Assembly: GCA_963704435.1 (NCBI GenBank)
Contig: OY969902.1
Location: forward strand, 60,001 to 92,000
Length of the DNA: 32,000 nt
Direction: 5' to 3'
Source: an uncultured archaeon
GTDB lineage: Archaea > Micrarchaeota > Micrarchaeia > Micrarchaeales > CABMGC01
The notes under the pieces were generated by a model. The model was not told where the DNA came from. It saw nothing but the letters and a program-made list of their open reading frames with translations, and did no database searches. The number at the start of each line of letters is the position of its first letter. Within the stretch, counting starts at the first letter, position 1. Positions 5,513-22,929 of this stretch are shown piece by piece. The position numbers and the translations under genes were made by a program.

Positions 5513-6646
5513 ATGCTTATTTGTAGTGATAACTGCAAGTCATCCCGGGCGATCGGATTGAAGAAGATAATAGGCATAAGGGGAGTGCTCGAGGTCATAG
5601 TGATATTCGCGGCCGTGATGCTCGCGGGCGCACTCATAGCCGCGGCGGCGGTCAGGACATCCAGCGTATCCATACTCTACGACACGCTTTCTGCGCCTAC
5701 GTTCGCGGTGTTCTCCTACTTCGTCGACGCAGCGCTCATACTGATAATCGCGCTGCTCATGATCAGGAGGCATGCGCACCACAGCAATACGGTCCTGTTC
5801 GAGGCGCTCGATGGCATAGTCACCACCTTCACTTCCTTCTTCCTGTTCCTCCTGCTCTTCGCGATGCTGCTGCCCCTCTCGGTGGCGACCGGATGGGTCT
5901 ACGTGTACTCGGCCGTGACCGCGATGGCGCTGATACTGGTCAAGGACATGCACCACAGGCTCAGGGACCTAACCACGGCCGTGTCCAGCATTGGCGTGGG
6001 CCTGGTGCTCGGGCTCAACTTCCCGCTGTCCTACGCGATCTTCCTGATGGGCGCAGTGGCGGTATACGACTACATCGCAGTGTTCAAGACTAGCGAGATG
6101 GCGGACCTGGCGAGGTCATTCTCCTCGCAGGACCTCTCGTTCCTGATAAGCGTGTCCGACCTCGAGCCCGTGTCGGAGCGCGGGCTCAGCCAGAAGGAGA
6201 TAATCCGCTACATAGAGTGCCTGGCGAAGGATGACGAGCTTGACGATCCGCGGTGCAGGGCCATACTCAAGAAAGGCGAGCTCCCGGCGCAGTCCAGTGT
6301 GTCCCTCGGCGAGGGGGACCTCAGCCTGCCGCTGATGGTCATAATAAGCGCCTACGCTTCGTTCAGCCACGCGATGGCCCTGGCCGTACTGGCGGGCGCC
6401 ATAGCCGGGATCTTCGCCACAATGGCGCTGCTGAAGGCCTACAAACGCCCCATACCCGCGATACCCCCGCTGTTCTCCTGCATAGGCCTCTTCGCGGGTT
6501 CCGCGCTGCTGCTTATCGGTGGCGCGTCGGCATACGCGGGTGCGCTTCTCGTTCTGGCGTGCGCCCTAGTCATGCTCGTGGACATAGTCACGATATCCAA
6601 GAAAATGCGCGACAGCGCAGCGGAGCGTTCGCGCAGGAAGCGGTGA
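5513..6646 (+). CDS. presenilin / signal-peptide-peptidase-like intramembrane aspartyl protease (A22 family homologue)
   Basis: 377-aa polytopic ORF. YD motif in a TM helix (GAVAVYDYIAVFK). A long hydrophilic loop is followed by GxGD (SLGEGDLSLPLMV) and a PAL-like PAIPPLF in the last helices. The true start is uncertain. Confidence 0.7.
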   Translation: MLICSDNCKSSRAIGLKKIIGIRGVLEVIVIFAAVMLAGALIAAAAVRTSSVSILYDTLSAPTFAVFSYFVDAALILIIALLMIRRHAHHSNTVLFEALDGIVTTFTSFFLFLLLFAMLLPLSVATGWVYVYSAVTAMALILVKDMHHRLRDLTTAVSSIGVGLVLGLNFPLSYAIFLMGAVAVYDYIAVFKTSEMADLARSFSSQDLSFLISVSDLEPVSERGLSQKEIIRYIECLAKDDELDDPRCRAILKKGELPAQSSVSLGEGDLSLPLMVIISAYASFSHAMALAVLAGAIAGIFATMALLKAYKRPIPAIPPLFSCIGLFAGSALLLIGGASAYAGALLVLACALVMLVDIVTISKKMRDSAAERSRRKR

Positions 6647-8243: not shown

Positions 8244-8672
8244 CTAGCAGAACGCGGCAAGCACCCCGCTGCCGCCCATCGACGATCCCAGGTTCACAAT
8301 GAACGTCAGCAGCGGCTGGGCCGCAAGGACTATCACCAGCCCGGTCACGCCGCCGGTCATCATCGCAATCGCCCAGGATAGCATTGACTTCTTGAACTCG
8401 AGCTCCTTCGGCATGAAGTGGGAGGCGGCGTACAGGAGGCCGCCGAGGAGGAACAGCGCCATGACCACCATCCCGATCGCCGCCCTTATTGAGCTAACGA
8501 GCCCGCACAGGGCGGAGTCGATTGCAGAAGAGGCCCCAGGAGCCGACGCTTCCGCAGCCATTGATTCGGCAGGGACCGAGCGGACGCAGGCACAGGGAAG
8601 TAGCAGGATGCAGGCGGAAAGCGCTATGAGCAGAACCCGGGATTCACGCAGCACGGTAGTAACAATCGCCAT
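8244..8672 (-). CDS. minimal VirB2/TrbC-like pilin-hairpin protein (signal peptide, short linker, hairpin)
   Basis: 142 aa. Hydrophobic N-terminal signal (VLLIALSACILLLPCACV). C-terminal 88 aa: LCGLVSSIRAAIGMVVMALFLLGGLLYAASHFMPKELEFKKSMLSWAIAMMTGGVTGLVIVLAAQPLLTFIV...C-stop, homologous to three other ORFs in the window. Confidence 0.75.
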   Translation of the reverse strand: MAIVTTVLRESRVLLIALSACILLLPCACVRSVPAESMAAEASAPGASSAIDSALCGLVSSIRAAIGMVVMALFLLGGLLYAASHFMPKELEFKKSMLSWAIAMMTGGVTGLVIVLAAQPLLTFIVNLGSSMGGSGVLAAFC

Positions 8673-8709
8673 ATGCGTATAAAAGCGCTACGCTCGCAGG
8701 ACGGCGCAA

Positions 8710-9807
8710 TCAGCGCCACGTTCTCCTCCTTCTGTATATCCTCGAGTACGCGACCCCGGCGGCTACCGCGACCGCTATCGCGACACCAGTTCCAATGAGC
8801 GGAAGCATATCGCCGGCATTAGGCGCAGGGGTCGTCACGGCCGGAGTGGCGTTCACTGCAGGCGCAACCGTGGTGGTCGGCGCGGTTGTCGTTGCAGTGG
8901 AAGGCACCGTGGAGGTCGCAATCTGCGGTCCAATCGTTACCGTGAAGGTCGTCGATGCGGCGTTGCCGTATGCGTCAGCCGCCGTGCAGGTCACTGCCGT
9001 ATTCCCTATCGGGAACGTCGATCCCGATGCAGGCGTGCATGTTGGCGTGAGCGCCGTGCCGTACTGGTCCGTTGCAGTTGGGGTCGTGTATGTTTCAGTT
9101 GAGCCAGCTGAAGTCGCTGCTGCAGCTGGGTCGACGTAGTTCGAGGGGGTGCCGGTTATCGTCGGAGGCGTTGCTCCCGCGCTGACAGTTATCGCCACCT
9201 CGGATGACGTTCCTGTTGCGCCTGTGCTGTCGGTTACGGTCTCGGAGACCTGATATGTTCCTGGCATTGCAAATGTGATTTGGTTGCCTGCGATTGATGC
9301 CTCTCCTTTAGCCATCGCGTCTGCGCTGTTGGAGTCAATTACCGAATACGCGTATGTGTATGGAGGTGTACCTGAAGTTGTCGAATTAGCGAATGTAACG
9401 TTCTGGCCCGTCGCGATCGCCGTGGATCCTGATGCGGATAGCGTTATCGATGGTGGGATTGTCGATACCGTCACTAACACTGGTGACGAGGTTACCGTCG
9501 CGCCCGTGCTGTCGGTTGCAGTTTCAATTACTGCATAGGTGTTTGCAGCCAAGAACATGATGGTGTTGCCCGCGACTGATGCTTCCCCATTACCCAGTGC
9601 GTTTGCGTTGCCGGAGTCAATTACCGAATACGCATATGTGTACGGAGGCGTTCCGGAGGACGTAGAATTAATGAATGTGACGTTCTGGTCCACCTGGATC
9701 ATCGTGGATCCCGATGCAGATAGCGTCAGTGCTTGCGCATGCGCCATCCCGGACAGAAATAGCATGCAGACAGCAGCCACCATGACCAGACTAAATCGCT
9801 TCGACAT
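8710..9807 (-). CDS. surface adhesin-like protein: signal peptide, 2x PKD-like repeat, HYR domain, Thr/Pro stalk, C-terminal TM anchor with basic tail
   Basis: 365 aa. AHA-QA signal-peptide cleavage-like site. Two 94-aa tandem repeats (aa 27-120 and 121-214) share SASGST..QNVTF.NST.SGTPPYTYAYSVIDS...TDSTGAT. HYR-like block TPTATDQYGTALTPTCTPASGSTFPIGNTAVTCTAADAYGNAASTTFTVTI. C-terminus MLPLIGTGVAIAVAVAAGVAYSRIYRRRRTWR. Confidence 0.85.
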   Translation of the reverse strand: MSKRFSLVMVAAVCMLFLSGMAHAQALTLSASGSTMIQVDQNVTFINSTSSGTPPYTYAYSVIDSGNANALGNGEASVAGNTIMFLAANTYAVIETATDSTGATVTSSPVLVTVSTIPPSITLSASGSTAIATGQNVTFANSTTSGTPPYTYAYSVIDSNSADAMAKGEASIAGNQITFAMPGTYQVSETVTDSTGATGTSSEVAITVSAGATPPTITGTPSNYVDPAAAATSAGSTETYTTPTATDQYGTALTPTCTPASGSTFPIGNTAVTCTAADAYGNAASTTFTVTIGPQIATSTVPSTATTTAPTTTVAPAVNATPAVTTPAPNAGDMLPLIGTGVAIAVAVAAGVAYSRIYRRRRTWR

Positions 9808-9916
9808 GACACACGCCTATGGATATCCTTTAGGCATGCAAAATTTATAATACGGTTAGTGACTTTTCGCAATGCCCGCGCAGTCCCCTCTTACGAGCCC
9901 GCCATCCTATGGGCCA

Positions 9917-10390
9917 TTACTGCTTCTTGCGCTTCCTGTCCGCAGATATCCTGGAGTACGCGACCCCGGCGGCTACCGCGACCGCTATCGCGACACCAGT
10001 TCCCATGAGGGGCAGCATCGCGCTCGGATTGGGCTGCGCAGGAGCAGGCGCCATCGCGACCGGTGCCGTCTGGTTCACTTCGACAGGCGCAGGCAGGACC
10101 GTGGTGACAAGCGTGACCGTGGTCATTGGCGCAGGAAGCACCGAAGAGGGCACCTTCATTGAGGTGTTGTTGGCTGTCGTGTTAGTCGCGCTCTCAGTCA
10201 CGTTTGTCGCATTCACTGGAGCAGTTATCGCCGTGGTGCTGGTGACGTTCAGGCTCGCCGCAATCGGCGTGCTGTTAGTCGCGTTCAAAGGCGCAGCAAC
10301 GGTGGAATTGGTCATATTCTGCGCATACGCAGTCAGGCCCATCCCTACCAGAAACAGCAGGACCATCGAGGTCATAAATCTTGTTTTCAT
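9917..10390 (-). CDS. secreted sequon-dense (N-glycosylation) stalk protein with the same C-terminal anchor as 8710-9807
   Basis: ORF track 9917-10456; I prefer the ATG at 10390 (MKTRFMTSMVLLFLVGMGLTAYA, signal-like). About 10 N-x-S/T sequons within about 55 aa (NMT NST NAT NST NVT NAT NVT NTT NNT NTS). C-terminus MLPLMGTGVAIAVAVAAGVAYSRISADRKRKKQ. Confidence 0.75.
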   Translation of the reverse strand: MKTRFMTSMVLLFLVGMGLTAYAQNMTNSTVAAPLNATNSTPIAASLNVTSTTAITAPVNATNVTESATNTTANNTSMKVPSSVLPAPMTTVTLVTTVLPAPVEVNQTAPVAMAPAPAQPNPSAMLPLMGTGVAIAVAVAAGVAYSRISADRKRKKQ

Positions 10391-10546
10391 ATCTCCACCA
10401 ATCTTAAATGCCATCATGATTGCCGATATTCCGTAGCATTCTACTGAATACCACACTTACCTAGATAAGATGTTTACGTTTATAAAACTATCTGCGGTTC
10501 TTGCACGGCAGTTCCGAGGGATGAAGACGAAGGGAGGGGCAGGCAA

Positions 10547-11296
10547 TCAAGAAGGCCTGATGCATTTGACTTCGTTTGACGCCGTGAGGTTGTACTGCTG
10601 CCCGCCGCTAAGGTTGCTGCGGGTGCTCCCGCTGGGGTAGTAGACGTACACCTGGAACGCATAAGGCCCGATTATGGCCGTGTCCGGATAGCCCACTTCG
10701 CTGTCGTTTGCTGCAAAGGAAGTCGTCGCAGGCTGGCCCGGCTCCCGCGTGCAGGAGCTTCCGTAAGAATGCCAGGCCGCGCAGGCCATGCTGCCGAAGC
10801 CGCCGGCCCAGACCAGACCGCCGGACTGAGGAGGATTATATATCAGCTTATTAATGAAGGCCGTTCCGTTCACTGGCCCTGTGATGGTGCCGTTAGCCTT
10901 GAGCGCAACCAGATAAAGTAGTCCGTTGGGGGTCCACTTGACTCCGCAGGAGACCGAGGAGAAGTTCATCGTGAATGGCGAGTTGTCCACAGGGGCGCCC
11001 TGGGAGACCGTGGTCGAAGGGGCCGGTGGCGCCACTGTGGTTGTCGAAGTGTTGACGGGCTTGTTCGGGCAGTTGTAGATAGCCCCTTGCGCGGCACAGC
11101 CGTTCGCTTCTATCCCGCAGATGTATCCGTATGGGCAAACGGTCGCGGTCGGCTGGATCGTGGACGAATTGCTGCCTGGCGTCGAGTAGGGCGCGGACTT
11201 GGGAATGACCAAGACTATTATTGCCCCTATCACTACGATTGCCGCCAGTATGCCCAGGATCATCTTCGTATTCGGTTTCGACTCCTTGTTTGCCAT
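10547..11296 (-). CDS. N-terminally anchored extracellular Cys-containing protein (hypothetical)
   Basis: 249 aa. N-terminal TM helix (MILGILAAIVVIGAIIVLVI). Cys-rich segment CPYGYICGIEANGCAAQGAIYNC, a Thr-rich linker, then a beta-rich domain with further Cys. Lies 10 bp downstream of the preceding cluster gene. Confidence 0.7.
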   Translation of the reverse strand: MANKESKPNTKMILGILAAIVVIGAIIVLVIPKSAPYSTPGSNSSTIQPTATVCPYGYICGIEANGCAAQGAIYNCPNKPVNTSTTTVAPPAPSTTVSQGAPVDNSPFTMNFSSVSCGVKWTPNGLLYLVALKANGTITGPVNGTAFINKLIYNPPQSGGLVWAGGFGSMACAAWHSYGSSCTREPGQPATTSFAANDSEVGYPDTAIIGPYAFQVYVYYPSGSTRSNLSGGQQYNLTASNEVKCIRPS

Positions 11297-11305
11297 GCCT
11301 TCCCC

Positions 11306-12406
11306 CTACGGCTGCCTAGTGAGCGTGAAAGTCTGGGTATATCCGCAGCCGACCGAGCACGAGGCGTCCGGAGGGCCTGGCGGCGCGGGCCCCGGGCTCC
11401 CGGTCAGCTTAAGGATTCCGCCGGACACCCCTCCGACATAGGTGGAGCCGTCGTTGCCCGTGAGGCTCACACCATTTCCGCTTACCGTCCCGTTAATCGT
11501 GAAGTCGACGTTTGTCTGCATGAGCCCGTAAATCACCAGGTCGCAGGTGCGGCCCGCTGGCGCAGGCTTGGTTATGGTCGTAAAGTTGACGACAAGGGTG
11601 CCGCTTACGTACGATCCGTTCTGCATCATCACGTTCAGCGTTGCATGGCCGGAATACGCGCATTGGGCGTCGCCGGCCCCGAGATCCTGCATCGTCACGG
11701 GCCCGCTCCAGATTCCGCTGACGCTTCCGCCAGATCCGGATATCGTGGTGGTGCTGCCTCGCGTGGTCGTGCTAGTGCTCTGGGATACCGTAGTGGTGCT
11801 TCCTCCCTTGACCGTGGTTGGCACGGTTGTGGTGGGGCTTACTGTAGTCGTGCCCGGGGAGGTCATAGTGGTAGTGCTGTTAATTGTGGTCGTGGTCGTA
11901 TAGCCCGGCGGCGAGACTGTGGTGGTCCTGGGAGCGCCCCTCCTAAGGACGAAGACCTGTGTGTACCCGCAGTATTTCACGCAGTTCGCTCCCACTCCCG
12001 AGAACGTCCTGTTCACGTAGAGGGTCATTATGTCGGAGTTCACCCAGCCCGTATAATTGACATCGTAGGTGTCCACCAGGTACACGTTCGTGCCGCTGAC
12101 CTGGCCCTGGACCGAGATCTGAAACGGGCCGTTGCCGTAGGAGCAGTTGAGGCCCTCCGGAGATGGGCTCGTGATTTCGATGCTGCCGCTGAACTGCCCG
12201 TTCACGGCCGCACCCGTCTGCGACAGCGCCAATGTCACGGGTCCGCCGTATGAGCAGCTGGGGATTCCAGTGTCTTCCATCGTGAAATTGCCAGTCCAGG
12301 TGCCCGCAATGTTCAGCGGTGCCACGGCGCCGGATGAGACCACCACCGCGGCCCCGGCCCCGGCCACGACAAGTGCGAAGAATACGACATTCACCAGGCT
12401 TACCAT
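11306..12406 (-). CDS. secreted protein with two homologous beta-rich domains separated by a Thr-rich linker (hypothetical)
   Basis: 366 aa with a signal-like N-terminus. Domain 1 (GTWTGNFTMED...C.YGG...CGYTQVFVLRR) and domain 2 (GIWSGPVTMQD...CAYSG...CGYTQTFTLTRQP) share start and end motifs. The linker is about 70 aa of T/S/G/P. Confidence 0.75.
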   Translation of the reverse strand: MVSLVNVVFFALVVAGAGAAVVVSSGAVAPLNIAGTWTGNFTMEDTGIPSCSYGGPVTLALSQTGAAVNGQFSGSIEITSPSPEGLNCSYGNGPFQISVQGQVSGTNVYLVDTYDVNYTGWVNSDIMTLYVNRTFSGVGANCVKYCGYTQVFVLRRGAPRTTTVSPPGYTTTTTINSTTTMTSPGTTTVSPTTTVPTTVKGGSTTTVSQSTSTTTRGSTTTISGSGGSVSGIWSGPVTMQDLGAGDAQCAYSGHATLNVMMQNGSYVSGTLVVNFTTITKPAPAGRTCDLVIYGLMQTNVDFTINGTVSGNGVSLTGNDGSTYVGGVSGGILKLTGSPGPAPPGPPDASCSVGCGYTQTFTLTRQP

Positions 12407-12635
12407 AGTTGTCCCTTATTTGCCCACTACTTCAAAGGTCAAGTATAAATATGTTATTCCGACAAGGACAAGATGGAACTGTGGAAACAGTAAGCGGACC
12501 CAAGCCAGCGATATTAGTGTGCACCATTCCGGTACACTTTCTGGCTTGGACTTACCCACTTGATACTATATCCTATTGCAGCGCATAAAAAGGTATCTAA
12601 TTATCTGTCTAGACACGCCGGAGCTTTCCCCTGGC

Positions 12636-13424
12636 TCAGCACGATATCGTTATGGCGCCGCTGCCAGGCTGCGAGACTATACTTATTATTGTAGTCAGGA
12701 GCGGCTTCGCGGCCAGAACTATGACAAGCGCTATGACCGCGCCTATCAGCATCGTGGTCGACCACGTGGTGAGGCTCTTCTTGAAATCGAGGTTCGTGGG
12801 CAGGAAGTGGGATATCGAATAGAGGATTCCGCCCAGCAGGAAAAGGGTCAGCGCGAGTATGCCCACCACGTTCCTGATCTCGTCCACTATCCCGCAGAGC
12901 TGCAGGTTTATCGCCGACGCTGCCGGCTGCGCTATGGCGTTCTGGGAGGTCGCGTTGGCCGCGCCCGCAGTCGTGGTCGCGGAGGTTACCGATGTGGTGA
13001 TGGTCGTCGGAATGTAGACAGCGATCTCCGCCGCCGGGGAGAGCGCGGCAGATCCCTTGGAGTCGGCGATGTAGACGCAGTACCATGCGGTCTTGGGGGG
13101 CGTCACTACTATTGCGTCCCTGGTCGAGAAGACGCTGTCGTTCCTGAAGTTGTCGCTATCGGACTGGCATTTCTGGAACGGGCCCGAGTACCACATGACT
13201 TTGTACGGGGAAGTCCCGCCGTACCAGACTGCTATGACGTTGGCGCTCTGGCCGTAGGTTATGTTCAGCGCGTTCACCGTGACGCTGATCTGGACGATGG
13301 GGGACAGCAGCACCGGCGCGATGATGCCCGTGGGATTGCCTGTCGAGGCCGCGCCCGCAGATACAAACAGCAGCGCAAGCGCAAATGATATTGAAGTCGC
13401 CTGCAGGCCGCGCACCTTGAACAT
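12636..13424 (-). CDS. secreted PKD/Ig-like domain protein with C-terminal VirB2/TrbC-like hairpin module
   Basis: ORF track 12636-13454; I prefer the ATG at 13424 (MFKVRGLQATSISFALALLFVSAGAAS). Ig-like motif VWYGGTSPYKVMWYSG...C...WYCVYIADSKG. Last 87 aa: LCGIVDEIRNVVGILALTLFLLGGILYSISHFLPTNLDFKKSL...ISC-stop. Confidence 0.8.
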   Translation of the reverse strand: MFKVRGLQATSISFALALLFVSAGAASTGNPTGIIAPVLLSPIVQISVTVNALNITYGQSANVIAVWYGGTSPYKVMWYSGPFQKCQSDSDNFRNDSVFSTRDAIVVTPPKTAWYCVYIADSKGSAALSPAAEIAVYIPTTITTSVTSATTTAGAANATSQNAIAQPAASAINLQLCGIVDEIRNVVGILALTLFLLGGILYSISHFLPTNLDFKKSLTTWSTTMLIGAVIALVIVLAAKPLLTTIISIVSQPGSGAITISC

Positions 13425-13509
13425 AATGTAAACCTCCAGCTGGGCAATGTCCAATTAACTGAACGTAATGTTCCTTAACCCTTTCGGAGCGGAAGGCCGC
13501 TCCTGTCCT

Positions 13510-15033
13510 TCAGCAGGATATGCTCAGCGCGCTGGCCCCTGTCGCGGACGCGCCGAGGTTCGCTATCAGCGTGAGCAGCGGCTTGGCCGCTATCACCACG
13601 ACCAGGGCGACCACCGCGCCTATTATCATGGTGGTGGACCAGGTGTGGAGGCTCTTCTTGAAATCGAGGTTCGTTGGCAGGAAGTGCGACACCGCGTACA
13701 GCACCCCTCCGAGAAGGAATAGCGTGAGCGACAGTGCGCCAACTATGCCCATCACCGACCCGACGAGCCCGCAGAGCACCGAGGAGATCGCGAATACCGT
13801 GCTTTGCTGCTGCGAGGTCGAGTTGGAGCCCGGCGTTCCCCCGACCGTGCTCCTTCCCGTCAGGACCGTTATCTCTATCGCCTGAGACGCGACCGTGGCG
13901 GGGGTGTTGGACGAGTCTGTGACGGTGTAGCAGTACCAGGTGCTTCCCGAAGGGGACAGCGCTATCGAGCCCGAGGTCGCCGACAGGTTGGCGCGCACTG
14001 CCAGCGTAACCGCGTCCTGGGCGCACGATGCGGACTGGCCCACGTACCATCTCAGCGTGTATGTCGGGGTCCCCCCGCTCCAGCCCGCGGTCAGGCTCAC
14101 CGCCTGGCCGTTGCTTATGCTGGAAGCGGTAGTCACCACGTTAGCTGCCAGGATCCTCGGGTTCACCGTTACCCCCGGCGACTCGTTGCTGACGGCCTTC
14201 CCCCTTGCGTATGCCACTGTCACCCTGCCCAGCAGCACGTTCCCCGCCTCCGCGGCGTTGGTCGTGTACGCAAGCGAGTTGTAGGCCATCGAGTTCGCAT
14301 TTATCACGTTCGCGAGCGCGTTCCCCGTGGCTGCGCTGACTATCACGAAATCGTAGGAGACGGGGGTGTAGTTCCCGTTCGCCATCGCGTTGAAAACCAC
14401 GGCCTGCCCCGCGTCTATCACGGTGCTGCTCACGGATATCAGCGGCGTCGGATAGACCGGCGGGGGCGCCATTGACTGCGAGAGCAGGAGCGCGGCGGCC
14501 GCGACCACGATCAGTATTATCGCTATCGCGGCGATGCTCTTCCACGGGATGCTCCGCTCCTCGTCCTCTTCGTTTTCGTACGCGCCGCCCGCTTTCGCCT
14601 CCTGCGGCACGTTCCTGCCTTCCTCTTCATGAACCGCTTCCGCTTCGGGCCCGGCTTCCTTTGGCGCGTGGCGCTCCTCCTGTTTTTCACCGGAAGCTAT
14701 CTGGCTCTCCTGCGCGGCGCCTTTCTCTTCCTCGCGGGCGCGCTCTTCGCGATGCTCCACGTGCCCCTCCTCCTGCTTGCGCTCCTCGCGGTGCTCTTCA
14801 GGGGGGCGCTCATGATGAGCCTCCTCGTATTTTTCCTCTGGCTTGTGCTCTTCGTGCTGGGCCTCCTTGTGCTCCTCCTTCGGCTTGCGCTCCTCATGGG
14901 CATGCTTGTGTTCCTCCCCGTGCTCCTTCCCCTCCTCGCGATGCTCCTTGTCCTTGTGCTCGGGATGCTGCGGCTCCTTGCGCTTCTTTCCGGCGCCCCC
15001 TTCCTTATGACCTGCCTTGTTTTCCTTCGCCAT
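13510..15033 (-). CDS. membrane protein: His/Glu/Lys-rich N-terminal tail, TM helix, two Ig-like domains, C-terminal VirB2/TrbC-like hairpin module
   Basis: 507 aa. The first ~165 aa are low-complexity H/E/K/R (HKEGG..EHKDKEHREEGKEHGEEHKHAHEE...). TM helix IAAIAIILIVVAAAALLL. Ig-like motif GWSGGTPTYTLRWYVG..C..WYCYTVTDSS. Last 88 aa: LCGLVGSVMGIVGALSLTLFLLGGVLYAVSHFLPTNLDFKKSL...ISC-stop. Confidence 0.8.
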   Translation of the reverse strand: MAKENKAGHKEGGAGKKRKEPQHPEHKDKEHREEGKEHGEEHKHAHEERKPKEEHKEAQHEEHKPEEKYEEAHHERPPEEHREERKQEEGHVEHREERAREEEKGAAQESQIASGEKQEERHAPKEAGPEAEAVHEEEGRNVPQEAKAGGAYENEEDEERSIPWKSIAAIAIILIVVAAAALLLSQSMAPPPVYPTPLISVSSTVIDAGQAVVFNAMANGNYTPVSYDFVIVSAATGNALANVINANSMAYNSLAYTTNAAEAGNVLLGRVTVAYARGKAVSNESPGVTVNPRILAANVVTTASSISNGQAVSLTAGWSGGTPTYTLRWYVGQSASCAQDAVTLAVRANLSATSGSIALSPSGSTWYCYTVTDSSNTPATVASQAIEITVLTGRSTVGGTPGSNSTSQQQSTVFAISSVLCGLVGSVMGIVGALSLTLFLLGGVLYAVSHFLPTNLDFKKSLHTWSTTMIIGAVVALVVVIAAKPLLTLIANLGASATGASALSISC

Positions 15034-16310: not shown

Positions 16311-16382
16311 TAGTGGTGTGCCGTAGCCTCTCTTCTGTTTTAGGTGGCATTCGACTTAGCGGCGTTCTGCCTTGCACGCTCA
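16311..16382 (-). repeat. 72-bp perfect duplicate of the 3' end of the RNase P RNA gene (att-like; non-functional rnpB fragment)
   Basis: Identical base for base to 17086-17157. The flanking bases differ on both sides (a/t upstream, t/c downstream). Same orientation as the intact gene. Confidence 0.9.
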
Positions 16383-16388
16383 TCGATA

Positions 16389-16730
16389 TCAATACTTGAA
16401 CCGTCTTTCATACTGCTTGTGGGGGAACCACTCCAGTATCACAGAGATTATCTCGATTTCGTTTCCACGTAGAGTGTACACCAACCTCCATCCGTTTGGC
16501 AGGTCATACTTCCTCAGGTTTGTGATTGCGAACCTCATCACGTACGCTCTGGGCCAGAGCCTCCTCCTTATCGCCACTCCCGCAAAGGGATCTTCCTTCA
16601 ACGCGTCCATTGCTTTCCGTATTTGCGAAGCGAGCTCTTTCTCCTCAAACTTTCCCGATTGCAATTCCAGGAAAGCCTTGCGGACTGACTCATCTCCGAA
16701 TCCGACCTTCTTCTCCCTTCCGTCGTTCAA
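16389..16730 (-). CDS. RelE/ParE-superfamily toxin-like protein
   Basis: 113 aa. C-terminal NLRKYDLPNGWRLVYTLRGNEIEIISVILEWFPHKQYERRF resembles the recalled RelE/StbE signature (..yR..l..gyRliY.v....i.i..i..H..Y). Overlaps the upstream small gene by 4 bp. Confidence 0.6.
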   Translation of the reverse strand: MNDGREKKVGFGDESVRKAFLELQSGKFEEKELASQIRKAMDALKEDPFAGVAIRRRLWPRAYVMRFAITNLRKYDLPNGWRLVYTLRGNEIEIISVILEWFPHKQYERRFKY

Positions 16731-17014
16731 TCAACCACCAGCCCGCGCTCGTGCATCTCCTTGACTTTTGAGGGATTCCACAGCCACGTTACCGTCCTGT
16801 CCTTTTCGACATGAATCTTGCCCGAATACTCAAGGTATTCGAGTATAGTGGTGAACGTGGACCACATCATTTTCTTCGGCAGCAGCCGCCATATCTGGGC
16901 CACGGTCTTGTCATTCCCGTACCTGAATAGCGCCTTCTCGACCATCAGTATCGAGTCGAGCCTTGGCGACCGGTCTATTTTCTTCGGGGCGCTTTTAAAC
17001 ACCTGCACTTGCAT
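16727..17014 (-). CDS. putative antitoxin / small winged-helix DNA-binding protein
   Basis: ORF track 16727-17023 (TTG); ATG at 17014. About 95 aa. Its stop overlaps the toxin start by 4 bp, the typical type II TA arrangement. The wHTH assignment is an inference from size and position. Confidence 0.5.
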   Translation of the reverse strand: MQVQVFKSAPKKIDRSPRLDSILMVEKALFRYGNDKTVAQIWRLLPKKMMWSTFTTILEYLEYSGKIHVEKDRTVTWLWNPSKVKEMHERGLVVD

Positions 17015-17018
17015 ATGA

Positions 17019-17048
17019 ATCAATTGATATATGTATCAACTGATATAT
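17019..17048. promoter_or_regulatory. tandem 14-nt direct repeats ATCAAYTGATATAT in the TA-cassette promoter (operator candidate)
   Basis: atcaattgatatat (17019-17032) and atcaactgatatat (17035-17048) are 13/14 identical with a 16-nt period. The first also contains the palindrome atcaattgat. TATA-like tatataaat follows on the minus-strand upstream side. Confidence 0.4.
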
Positions 17049-17085: not shown

Positions 17086-17324
17086 TAGTGGTGTGCCGTA
17101 GCCTCTCTTCTGTTTTAGGTGGCATTCGACTTAGCGGCGTTCTGCCTTGCACGCTCACTGTACGCGCATCGGCGCGTTTCACGCGCACGCGCACGCTCGT
17201 CGCGTCATCGCTTTATGTGCGCCAGCGCTTGCGTTTCTGCTCCGAATATGGCCTTGGGCCTCGCGTACTCCGCGTGGAGAGAGCTTCCTCAGTCTTTCGA
17301 CCGTAAGCCACCCGCACACCACTA
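17086..17324 (-). ncRNA. rnpB: RNase P RNA (compact, type-A-like)
   Basis: Read on the minus strand.
- P1: 5' UAGUGGUGUGC pairs perfectly (11 bp) with 3' GCACACCACUA.
- P2: GGUGGC pairs with GCCACC.
- P3: GGUC-GAAA-GACU.
- CR-I-like GAGGAAGCUCUCUCC.
- CR-IV/CR-V-like AAGUCGAAUGCCACCUAAAACAGAAGAGAGGCUAC (compare E. coli AGAUGAAUG...ACAGAA...GGCUUA).
- P4: AGC[U]CUCUC pairs with GAGAGGCU, leaving a bulged U.
- TATA ttatataaa is centred about 26 nt upstream of the predicted 5' end.
Ends are good to a few nt. Confidence 0.75.
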
Positions 17325-22756: not shown

Positions 22757-22854
22757 AAGCGATCACTACACATTGGCAGAGAGCTATTAAAAGGTTTTAA
22801 TGAACGTAGTTCCGCCAGAAAAGAAGTGGGCTGCGGCGGTGTTCCAATGTCCAG

Positions 22855-22929
22855 TGCTCTGGTCGGGATTCGAACCCGAGTTACAGACTTGAGAGGCCTG
22901 TGTCCTTGACCGGACTAGACGACCAGAGC
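22855..22929 (-). tRNA. tRNA-Glu (anticodon CUC)
   Basis: 75-nt cloverleaf folded by hand. Acceptor GCUCUGG/CCAGAGC. D arm GUCU/GGAC. Anticodon stem CAGGC/GUCUG with loop C-U-CUC-A-A. T arm UCGGG-UUCGAAU-CCCGA. Discriminator A. CCA is not encoded. Confidence 0.9.

Follow-up and report, generated by a model that had tools for sequence, protein, structure and literature searches.

We describe a cluster of seven surface-protein genes at positions 8244-15033 of a 32,000-nucleotide (nt) stretch of DNA, hereafter the window, from an uncultured archaeon of the Micrarchaeota (GenBank assembly GCA_963704435.1, contig OY969902.1, positions 60,001 to 92,000 of the forward strand). Three of the encoded proteins, together with a fourth from outside the cluster (2172-2912), end in one hairpin module, the family of which is assigned here to the VirB2/TrbC pilins. 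On balance, these copies are probably accessory, fast-evolving pilin paralogues with adhesin heads, which reside in a variable surface-protein island and depend on a machine encoded elsewhere in the genome. An earlier reading of the letters (the sequence-only reading) had proposed a self-contained, new apparatus. This proposal is not upheld, given that the canonical member of the family is a bare pilin heading a conserved operon of multi-pass membrane proteins and an ATPase. Likewise, its view that nothing matched the known archaeal systems and that no ATPase machine was at hand gives way to a layout resembling Ced, Ted and type IV secretion systems (T4SSs), which is found in relatives and apparently elsewhere in the window genome.

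A six-frame hmmsearch retrieved four copies of the module from the window (E 1e-30 to 1e-44; next best 0.08), in agreement with the earlier claim that three cluster proteins and the 2172-2912 product share a C-terminal hairpin. The module comprises about 96 amino acids (aa), running from a Cys through a helix, a basic loop and a second helix to a Gly/Ser-rich tail and a terminal Cys. Over 96 aa, identity among the four copies is 51-64%, and 33 positions, both Cys included, are invariant; the fusion copies retain the motifs FxxxxGG, HFxP and W..M, the Gly/Ser tail and both Cys, and the FKKS/RKS loop is conserved across the family. Both module ends are predicted to lie outside the membrane. In the AlphaFold2 model of the 142-aa cluster protein (predicted local distance difference test, pLDDT, 80.7), a signal helix is followed by two long helices at residues 47-85 and 92-131, and the hairpin reaches a pLDDT of 84-97. 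Among 103 diverse family members, 66 possess the Cys pair, located about 10 residues before helix 1 and at the extreme C-terminus, and 74 have exactly two Cys, whereas the pair is absent from the aligned TrwL-type bacterial VirB2 sequences. The pair may form a disulfide and so imitate T-pilin and TrbC, which are cyclised head to tail. An interpretation of the conserved Cys as part of a lipobox was rejected, as the residue is preceded by S/T-x-L and lies 8-14 residues inside the mature protein.

A word-indexed homology search yielded 41 relatives of the module, nearly all of 112-145 aa and consisting of a signal peptide and the module alone. An exhaustive profile search of 1.84 billion representatives extended the family to 364 members (130 at E <= 1e-10), mostly bare forms of 105-160 aa; where named, all are annotated as "hypothetical protein". 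The bare members of 112-145 aa display the features that define the VirB2 superfamily, namely secretion, small size and a pair of long hydrophobic helices joined by a short basic cytoplasmic loop. Scanning the 103 diverse members one by one against Pfam gave matches to PF04956 (TrbC/VirB2) for 29 (best 1.3e-7) and to PF18895 (T4SS_pilin) for 26 (best 1.4e-6), and no other Pfam family was matched by more than six. With a profile of these 103 sequences, the best of 177,635 PDB sequences was TrwL, the VirB2 pilin of R388 (E 0.099), aligned in register over the signal-peptide cleavage region, helix 1, the loop, a conserved Trp and helix 2; a four-sequence profile found nothing in the same set. Comparison by hhalign with a profile of annotated TrwL/VirB2 proteins gave E values of 5e-4 to 1.4e-3. 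We therefore accept, at the family level and by transitive profile evidence of individually weak signals, that the module appears to belong to the VirB2/TrbC superfamily. The VirB2/TrbC-like label given earlier to the hairpin thus stands for the family and fails as a direct match of the window proteins, for which Pfam returned TrbC at an E of 0.2 and no T4SS_pilin match.

A scan of one genome per GTDB species provided 13 tblastn-confirmed loci of the family. Twelve of them come from metagenome-assembled genomes, 11 under the label Micrarchaeota or "uncultured archaeon" and one under the label Marsarchaeota; the remaining locus, from an Armatimonadetes bacterium, is a weak match (8e-5) with no operon genes seen. 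Across these Micrarchaeota genomes, a bare pilin of 120-135 aa comes first in the same chromosomal operon. The order usually begins with a MoxR ATPase, the pilin, a multi-pass protein of 633-650 aa and a 243-aa membrane protein, and continues with six mutually paralogous multi-pass proteins, two proteins of about 275 aa, a 501-aa ATPase and five more genes; some loci are cut short or miss one gene. Housekeeping genes flank the operon (TBP, L21e, DUF655, Rpb4 ... TopoVI-B). In one locus (L013), two pilin genes stand in tandem at the operon head, 9725-10279 (184 aa) and 10487-10876 (129 aa), and pilin duplication therefore occurs in situ too. More than 100 Micrarchaeota clusters contain the operon ATPase at 69-89% identity; thus, the apparatus is a core feature of the phylum.

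Above Pfam thresholds, the 501-aa ATPase matches DUF87/HerA-central (1.9e-15), AAA_10 (6e-14) and P-loop_TraG (8e-10). Its best NCBIfam models are CedD, CedB, a VirB4 model and HerA, at about 1e-17 to 1e-19 and far under the equivalog cut-offs (64.8 bits against 700 for CedB, 67.9 against 600 for CedD), with the HerA and VirB4 models scoring alike. In the PDB it best matches HerA, followed by a VirB4-like protein. The AlphaFold2 model of one multi-pass paralogue (pLDDT 73.6) found TrwI/VirB6 of the R388 T4SS as its top Foldseek matches among 350,542 PDB chains (8rtd_L, E 0.13, probability 0.80; also 8rt9_F and chains J, G and F of 7o3v; TM-scores 0.30-0.41), a likeness that is non-significant. 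The multi-pass paralogues have no Pfam match, and PDB sequence searches with the multi-pass, 640-aa and 783-aa operon proteins found nothing. The weak signals from the pilin, the ATPase and the membrane platform are independent of one another, and all three indicate a reduced machine of conjugation type, akin to Ced and Ted. The canonical pilins, in 12 or more Micrarchaeota genomes, are accompanied by a VirB4-clade ATPase and a putative VirB6-type partner, from which the window copies are unlinked. The 633-650-aa protein that follows the operon pilin (10373-12295 in L001, and orthologs) has an invariant D-E-E loop motif and many conserved aromatics; it gave no Pfam or PDB match and is possibly a glycosyltransferase of the GT-C type, with the pilin or surface proteins as substrates. 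In one genome, a DUF2079 membrane protein (L025 1946-3502) adjoins it.

The same data could be read to mean that family and operon are not derived from a T4SS at all, the HerA-type ATPase serving another complex, such as pilus-free DNA or nutrient uptake or envelope biogenesis, and the TrbC and T4SS_pilin matches being hydrophobic-helix noise. This would fit an ATPase that matches HerA about as well as VirB4/CedB and that, at 501 aa, lacks the VirB4 N-terminal domain, a VirB6 similarity that is non-significant, and sporadic matches of family members to unrelated membrane families. However, such noise would hardly single out TrbC and T4SS_pilin (29 and 26 of 103 members against at most six for any other family), place a VirB2 pilin, in register, first among the PDB sequences and VirB6 first among the structures, or bring AAA_10 and P-loop_TraG above threshold. 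Given that three independent weak signals converge on one machine, we regard this explanation as improbable.

The operon is absent from the window itself. The window genome would carry it elsewhere on the same contig, as the recorded contig of an operon-ATPase ortholog (P0267, 82% identical) measures 852,977 nt and thus equals in length the one with the window proteins. In a relative (L026) whose ATPase falls into the same 90% cluster, MoxR and a 132-aa pilin are followed by proteins of 639, 244, 475, 397, 501, 389 and 351 aa. A word-indexed search with the multi-pass profile did not find a copy on the 852,977-nt contig; since it missed most family members, among them some of its own queries, this result is not evidence of absence. 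Among the window copies, the one at 2172-2912 is nearest to the operon pilins (64% identical to that of L001, 73% to that of L026).

All three fusions in the window share one plan, in which a signal peptide or anchor is followed by one or two PKD/Ig (immunoglobulin)-like domains, a Ser/Thr linker of 20-30 residues and the module. The 507-aa protein (13510-15033, minus strand; an open reading frame, ORF, identical to a public gene call and supported by module alignment and a map of membrane helices and Cys) has a Lys/Glu/His-rich cytoplasmic N-terminus of 160 aa, a membrane helix at residues 161-191, two PKD/Ig-like domains, a Ser/Thr linker and the C-terminal module (13510-13800). The segment encoding its residues 1-160 (14560-15033, minus) is of low complexity with degenerate 33-nt repeats. 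The 262-aa protein (12636-13424, minus; ORF, exact public gene call, module alignment) consists of a signal peptide, one Ig-like domain, a Ser/Thr linker and the module (12636-12926). The 246-aa protein outside the cluster (2172-2912, minus; ORF, six-frame hmmsearch) has the same order of parts, with a weak Pfam Ig_3 match (7e-4) and the module at 2172-2462. In addition, a bare paralogue of 142 aa (8244-8672, minus; ORF, identical to public protein P0001) is made of a signal peptide and the module (8244-8534). Its start is uncertain, given that one public gene call (L019) uses an internal Met to give 75 aa; a TATA-like element lies only 8 nt upstream of its ATG. The Ig domains of the fusions are mutually related and akin to the PKD domains of the neighbouring 8710-9807 product (1.4e-14 for the Ig region of the 507-aa protein), as well as to repeats that interrupt a multi-pass protein of 975 aa encoded in the L003 operon (1e-11). 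The earlier claim of Ig/PKD-like adhesin domains as partners of the hairpin is thereby supported.

Elsewhere in the family, the module is fused to an Ice_binding-like beta-helix, to PKD domains or to a head of 813 aa. Moreover, tandem modules occur in P0064 (1071 aa, seven modules), P0065 (632 aa, four) and P0074 (342 aa, four), each module bounded by the conserved Cys pair and placed behind an extracellular head. This arrangement implies either poly-pilin precursors from which modules are released by proteolysis or very unusual membrane proteins of 8-14 helices.

These architectures bear on two simpler accounts of the fusions. In the first, the hairpin would be merely a C-terminal membrane anchor, a duplicated pilin module reused to display Ig/PKD adhesins with neither polymerisation nor contact to a machine. 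The second membrane helix and cytoplasmic tail of the 507-aa protein, which pin its Ig domains at both ends, are in line with this account, as are heads of up to 813 aa, which a filament body could hardly accommodate, and the distance of the cluster from the ATPase operon; the adjoining adhesin-like genes use ordinary single-helix anchors. However, hydrophobicity alone would suffice for an anchor, yet the fusions keep all 33 invariant positions; the module also diverges least between species (83% identity, the Ig domains reaching 69-76%; see below), and proteins with seven modules make poor sense as anchors. We thus consider the anchor account possible but rather unlikely. In the second, the Ig/PKD region would be a long pro-peptide or leader cleaved near the conserved Cys, so that the fusions supply antigenically distinct bare pilins. 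VirB2, TrbC and TraA pilins have unusually long leaders and undergo N- and C-terminal processing. TedC is processed as well (PMC9905601). Furthermore, the tandem proteins P0064, P0065 and P0074 imply proteolytic release of single modules, and in the fusions, the residues just before the Cys are similar to those with which the mature bare forms begin. Nevertheless, an identity of 69-76% against 39% for the cytoplasmic tail shows the Ig domains to be clearly under purifying selection, their kinship with domains of the 975-aa operon protein of L003 argues for a function of their own, and no recognisable cleavage motif was found; we give this second account little credence.

Comparison with relatives revealed how variable the locus is. 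In a related species (L027), genes matching the flanks of the cluster (82-89% protein identity) have between them orthologs of no more than the first two cluster genes, those of the 507-aa and 262-aa proteins, which keep their positions at 61% overall and 62.5% identity, respectively. The other five, including 11306-12406, are absent between those flanks. Within the 507-aa protein, identity to the L027 ortholog amounts to 83% in the pilin module, 69-76% in the Ig domains and 39% in the cytoplasmic tail, the composition of which is kept. Even a 99.9%-identical strain (L019) differs: blastn against the window and the gene table showed that 30 nt at 10420-10449 are replaced by 4.4 kb (L019 8465-12887), encoding a surface protein of 1411 aa with a right-handed, NosD-like beta-helix repeat (Pfam Beta_helix 7.5e-14, Big_3_5 1.1e-8). 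Contig L020 from another assembly ends exactly at 10419. The seven genes are therefore not a conserved unit; given the loss of five genes in L027 and the strain indel, the locus behaves like a variable surface-protein island seeded by a conserved pilin-fusion pair. Of the synteny expected by the sequence-only reading, the first two genes are retained, the other five are not, and the near-identical strain carries an adhesin gene more. Integration linked to a tRNA gene was rejected, the single tRNA of the window lying at 22854-22929.

The favoured reading, accessory headed pilins served by a machine encoded elsewhere, suggests a putative mechanism. In F, T, Ced and Ted pili, VirB2-type pilins are held in the membrane as hairpins until a platform of the VirB4/VirB6 type extracts them and polymerises them with lipid (PMC9905601). 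The Micrarchaeota module would likewise be inserted as a hairpin that leaves both ends outside and keeps the basic FKKS loop on the inner side, and its N-proximal and C-terminal Cys may staple the ends together as a functional mimic of cyclised T-pilin/TrbC. Because the module retains every invariant residue of the operon pilin, the window paralogues are expected to be recognised by the assembly platform of that pilin. The Ig-bearing paralogues might then be built into the pilus, most plausibly at the tip, or docked at its base, presenting their adhesin heads. Each N-terminal head would face outward on a flexible linker, and big heads would be easiest to fit at the tip, where they would fill the adhesin role of bacterial VirB5, of which no counterpart was recognised. 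The neighbouring PKD-HYR, sequon-rich and Cys-rich anchored proteins may represent further variable adhesins or glycoproteins, which together with the pilin paralogues would set the specificity of host-cell contact.

A bolder version holds that Micrarchaeota build a conjugation-type, lipid-containing pilus with strain-specific Ig/PKD-headed paralogues at its tip or along its shaft, an adhesive hollow tube that docks on a wall-less Thermoplasmatales host and serves as a conduit for DNA, lipid or metabolites. We regard this as unlikely in its full extent; if true, T4SS pili would gain a new principle in the form of VirB2 pilins that bear extra domains and of poly-pilin precursors.

Several observations weigh against both the favoured reading and its extension. 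The operon on the window's own contig is deduced rather than seen directly. The extra N-terminal helix and 160-aa cytoplasmic tail would keep the 507-aa protein membrane-bound and out of any filament unless cleaved, and no Micrarchaeota filament is reported in the literature searched. On the side of the machine, the operon ATPase is equally close to HerA and to VirB4/CedB, the VirB6 likeness of the multi-pass proteins stays non-significant, and hhalign of these paralogues gave no signal against TrwI alone or against the MPF_T VirB6 profile (E 0.32). On the side of the pilin, besides the missing direct Pfam match of the window proteins, hhalign assigned a probability of only 17-30% to the TrwL family, and Foldseek of the hairpin model against the PDB returned generic helical hairpins only (best E 1.7), a search that is uninformative for so simple a fold.

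The sequence-only reading described the cluster itself accurately. All seven consecutive minus-strand ORFs are present at 8244-15033, and every product is secreted or membrane-anchored. As it had also noted, no enzyme, transporter or ATPase is interleaved according to Pfam and NCBIfam scans; nor did these scans match type IV pilin or archaellum families, a PilB/PilC-type ATPase and platform or a prepilin peptidase in the cluster or its flanks, and the N-termini are Sec-type signal peptides or signal anchors, not class III. Models of S-layer proteins or C-terminal sorting signals (archaeosortase, PGF-CTERM-type) in NCBIfam and Pfam gave no match in the cluster. Five of six looked-up products are exact public gene calls on a contig of 852,977 nt; the 8710-9807 product was matched on a short contig only, and no match was found among public gene calls for that of 9917-10390.

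As a TATA-like element precedes most of the cluster genes individually, the seven are unlikely to be transcribed as one unit. The smallest intergenic gap is 9 bp (11297-11305), and the genes on its two sides, 11306-12406 and 10547-11296, are probably co-transcribed; the same perhaps applies to 8710-9807 and 8244-8672, 37 bp apart. A BRE (B recognition element)/TATA-like motif, CCGAAA[AG]G[GT]TTAAGGAA, lies upstream of both 12636-13424 (13440-13470) and 2172-2912 (2950-2975) on the minus strand, which suggests that these two Ig-pilin paralogues are regulated together. Given this motif upstream of both and a GGAGG 8 nt before the ATG at 13424, the ATG starts chosen in the earlier reading are preferred for the two genes over the longest-ORF starts.

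The four partner genes, all on the minus strand, fit their earlier descriptions. The 366-aa protein (11306-12406; ORF with internal repeat) is secreted or anchored and has two Cys-containing beta-rich repeats with a Ser/Thr-rich linker between them. The duplication scores 154 in local alignment against 38 +/- 6.6 for shuffles, with matching Cys spacing, and the protein has no Pfam or NCBIfam match. The 249-aa protein (10547-11296; ORF, 9 bp after the preceding gene) combines an N-terminal membrane anchor with eight Cys and eight sequons, again with no Pfam or NCBIfam family match. The 157-aa stalk protein (9917-10390; ORF with signal peptide and C-terminal membrane anchor) contains 11 N-x-S/T sequons, and its C-terminal region of about 120 aa is common to it and the 8710-9807 product (42% identity over 125 aa, 5e-19).

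The latter, an adhesin-type protein of 365 aa recognised by Pfam (8710-9807; HYR 8.5e-12, PKD 7.5e-8 in two stretches, PKD_4 2.5e-6), has a signal peptide, a PKD-PKD-HYR array, a Ser/Thr stalk and a C-terminal membrane anchor; its gene contains a tandem 282-nt repeat. The C-terminal anchors of the two proteins are encoded by 89-nt stretches of 89% DNA identity (8736-8824 and 9946-10034) and consist of a plain hydrophobic helix, MLPL[IM]GTGVAIAVAVAAGVAYSRI, followed by basic residues. Such near-identity points to recent gene conversion or a common, unrecognised sorting signal. A weak NCBIfam match of 8710-9807 to PamR, a pilus protein of the Candidate Phyla Radiation (E 0.005), was rejected as mere Ig-like similarity; the Pam system, made of donor-strand-exchange pili, is unrelated to these proteins.

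Outside the cluster, four small membrane proteins (89, 81, 129 and 143 aa) encoded at 128-2146 on the plus strand adjoin the fourth pilin copy; the pilin family profile matches none of them. A TrbC match of ORF 1715-2146 (E 0.038) was rejected as a pilin, given that the family profile gives no match to it. Two genes from the cluster, 5513-6646 (plus) encodes a GxGD-type aspartyl protease like presenilin and signal peptide peptidase (Pfam SPP 5.4e-11), not like PibD/FlaK. Type II signal anchors, for instance that of the 507-aa protein, are conceivable substrates of it; in L027, the protease gene is not beside the pilin-fusion pair. On the other side, perfect 72-nt direct repeats (16311-16382 and 17086-17157) bracket two minus-strand genes, 16389-16730 and 16727-17023, of which the downstream one is ParE-toxin-like (Pfam 4.3e-5) and the overlapping upstream one likely encodes the antitoxin. 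This arrangement resembles a small toxin-antitoxin cassette that is either mobile or duplicated.

These findings bear on the means by which Micrarchaeota and other DPANN archaea hold on to their hosts and take up host lipids, nucleotides and DNA. The paper on a cultured Micrarchaeon describes few transporters and unexplained cell-cell contact, with no mention of pili or secretion systems, and the literature searched held nothing that combines Micrarchaeota with VirB2, VirB4, pilins or secretion systems. The phylum-wide T4SS/Ced-like operon is a concrete candidate machine for host contact and uptake, and the fast-varying headed pilin paralogues are a candidate determinant of specificity; both are directly testable in existing co-cultures. 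If true, VirB2-type pili would be extended within the archaea beyond the Thermoproteota, and the parallel with the VirB2 arrays of Patescibacteria would suggest convergent or common solutions. The type of machine is known, while its core presence in Micrarchaeota and the head-bearing and tandem pilins appear to be undescribed. Two architectures were found nowhere described, namely VirB2 pilins headed by Ig/PKD domains or a beta-helix and tandem poly-pilin proteins.

Among the closest known systems are the DNA importers Ced (Sulfolobales/Desulfurococcales) and Ted (Thermoproteales), which have VirB2-like pili and comprise a pilin (CedA1/TedC), a VirB6-like protein (CedA/TedA) and a VirB4-like ATPase (CedB/TedB) (PMC9905601). 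The Micrarchaeota operon shares with them a domesticated, chromosomal and minimal archaeal set of a two-helix pilin, multi-pass protein(s) and one ATPase of the HerA/VirB4 clade; its pilin has a cleavable signal peptide as in TedC, and CedD and CedB are the best NCBIfam matches of its ATPase. Unlike Ced and Ted, which belong to Thermoproteota, it occurs in a DPANN phylum, has six paralogous multi-pass proteins rather than one, and has no linked HerA, NurA, Rad50 or ParA genes; Ig/PKD-fused pilin paralogues and poly-pilin proteins are likewise foreign to Ced and Ted as described. At about 65 bits to CedB/CedD against cut-offs of 600-700, the ATPase does not qualify as a CedB/TedB ortholog. Profile searches of the PDB sequence set, which we take to hold the pilus structures of Beltran et al., gave no match to CedA1 or TedC; since the Ced and Ted pilins have no sequence similarity to each other (PMC9905601), a common fold is not excluded thereby.

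The bacterial VirB2, TrbC, TrwL and TraA pilins resemble the module in their order of signal peptide, helix, short basic cytoplasmic loop and helix, with the termini outside, TrwL being its best match of solved structure. As in T-pilin and TrbC, the termini are possibly joined, by a disulfide here and by a peptide bond there. In contrast to these pilins, the module has a conserved Cys pair, a Gly/Ser-rich tail and N-terminal domain fusions; the operon lacks a VirB7/9/10 outer-membrane core, and VirB3, VirB5, VirB8, VirB11 and a coupling protein were not detected. The Rickettsiales vir homolog (rvh) T4SS contains four to five tandem VirB6 paralogues. In Anaplasma and Bartonella, pilins are amplified into VirB2 paralogue families (PMC12102498). 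Common to these cases are dependence on a host, a reduced genome and the tandem amplification of both pilins and a multi-pass (VirB6-like) component; unlike rvh, the present system is archaeal and faces a single membrane, and its VirB6 homology consists of non-significant fold matches only.

Nanohaloarchaeal giant proteins of the SPEARE type combine tandem Ig-like domains with a membrane helix and an ATPase domain resembling VirB4/TraG (PMC10266531). Likened by architecture alone, they are a further DPANN case in which Ig-like adhesion domains meet T4SS-type components in a proposed host contact, with the difference that Ig domains are fused there to the ATPase in one giant protein and here to the pilin. 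Finally, episymbiotic Patescibacteria possess variable VirB2 arrays of 2-11 divergent genes, and a pilin array is essential in Southlakia epibionticum (PMC12102498). The present family differs from these arrays in being archaeal, in the separation of the array from the ATPase operon, in the Ig/PKD heads on three of four copies and in the likeness of the window paralogues (51-64%, against a mean of 25%). Nonetheless, both cases concern ultra-small, host-dependent episymbionts with several divergent VirB2-family genes, in tandem or interrupted, that match the same Pfam families (PF04956 and PF18895) and belong to relaxase-free systems presumably co-opted for interaction with the host.

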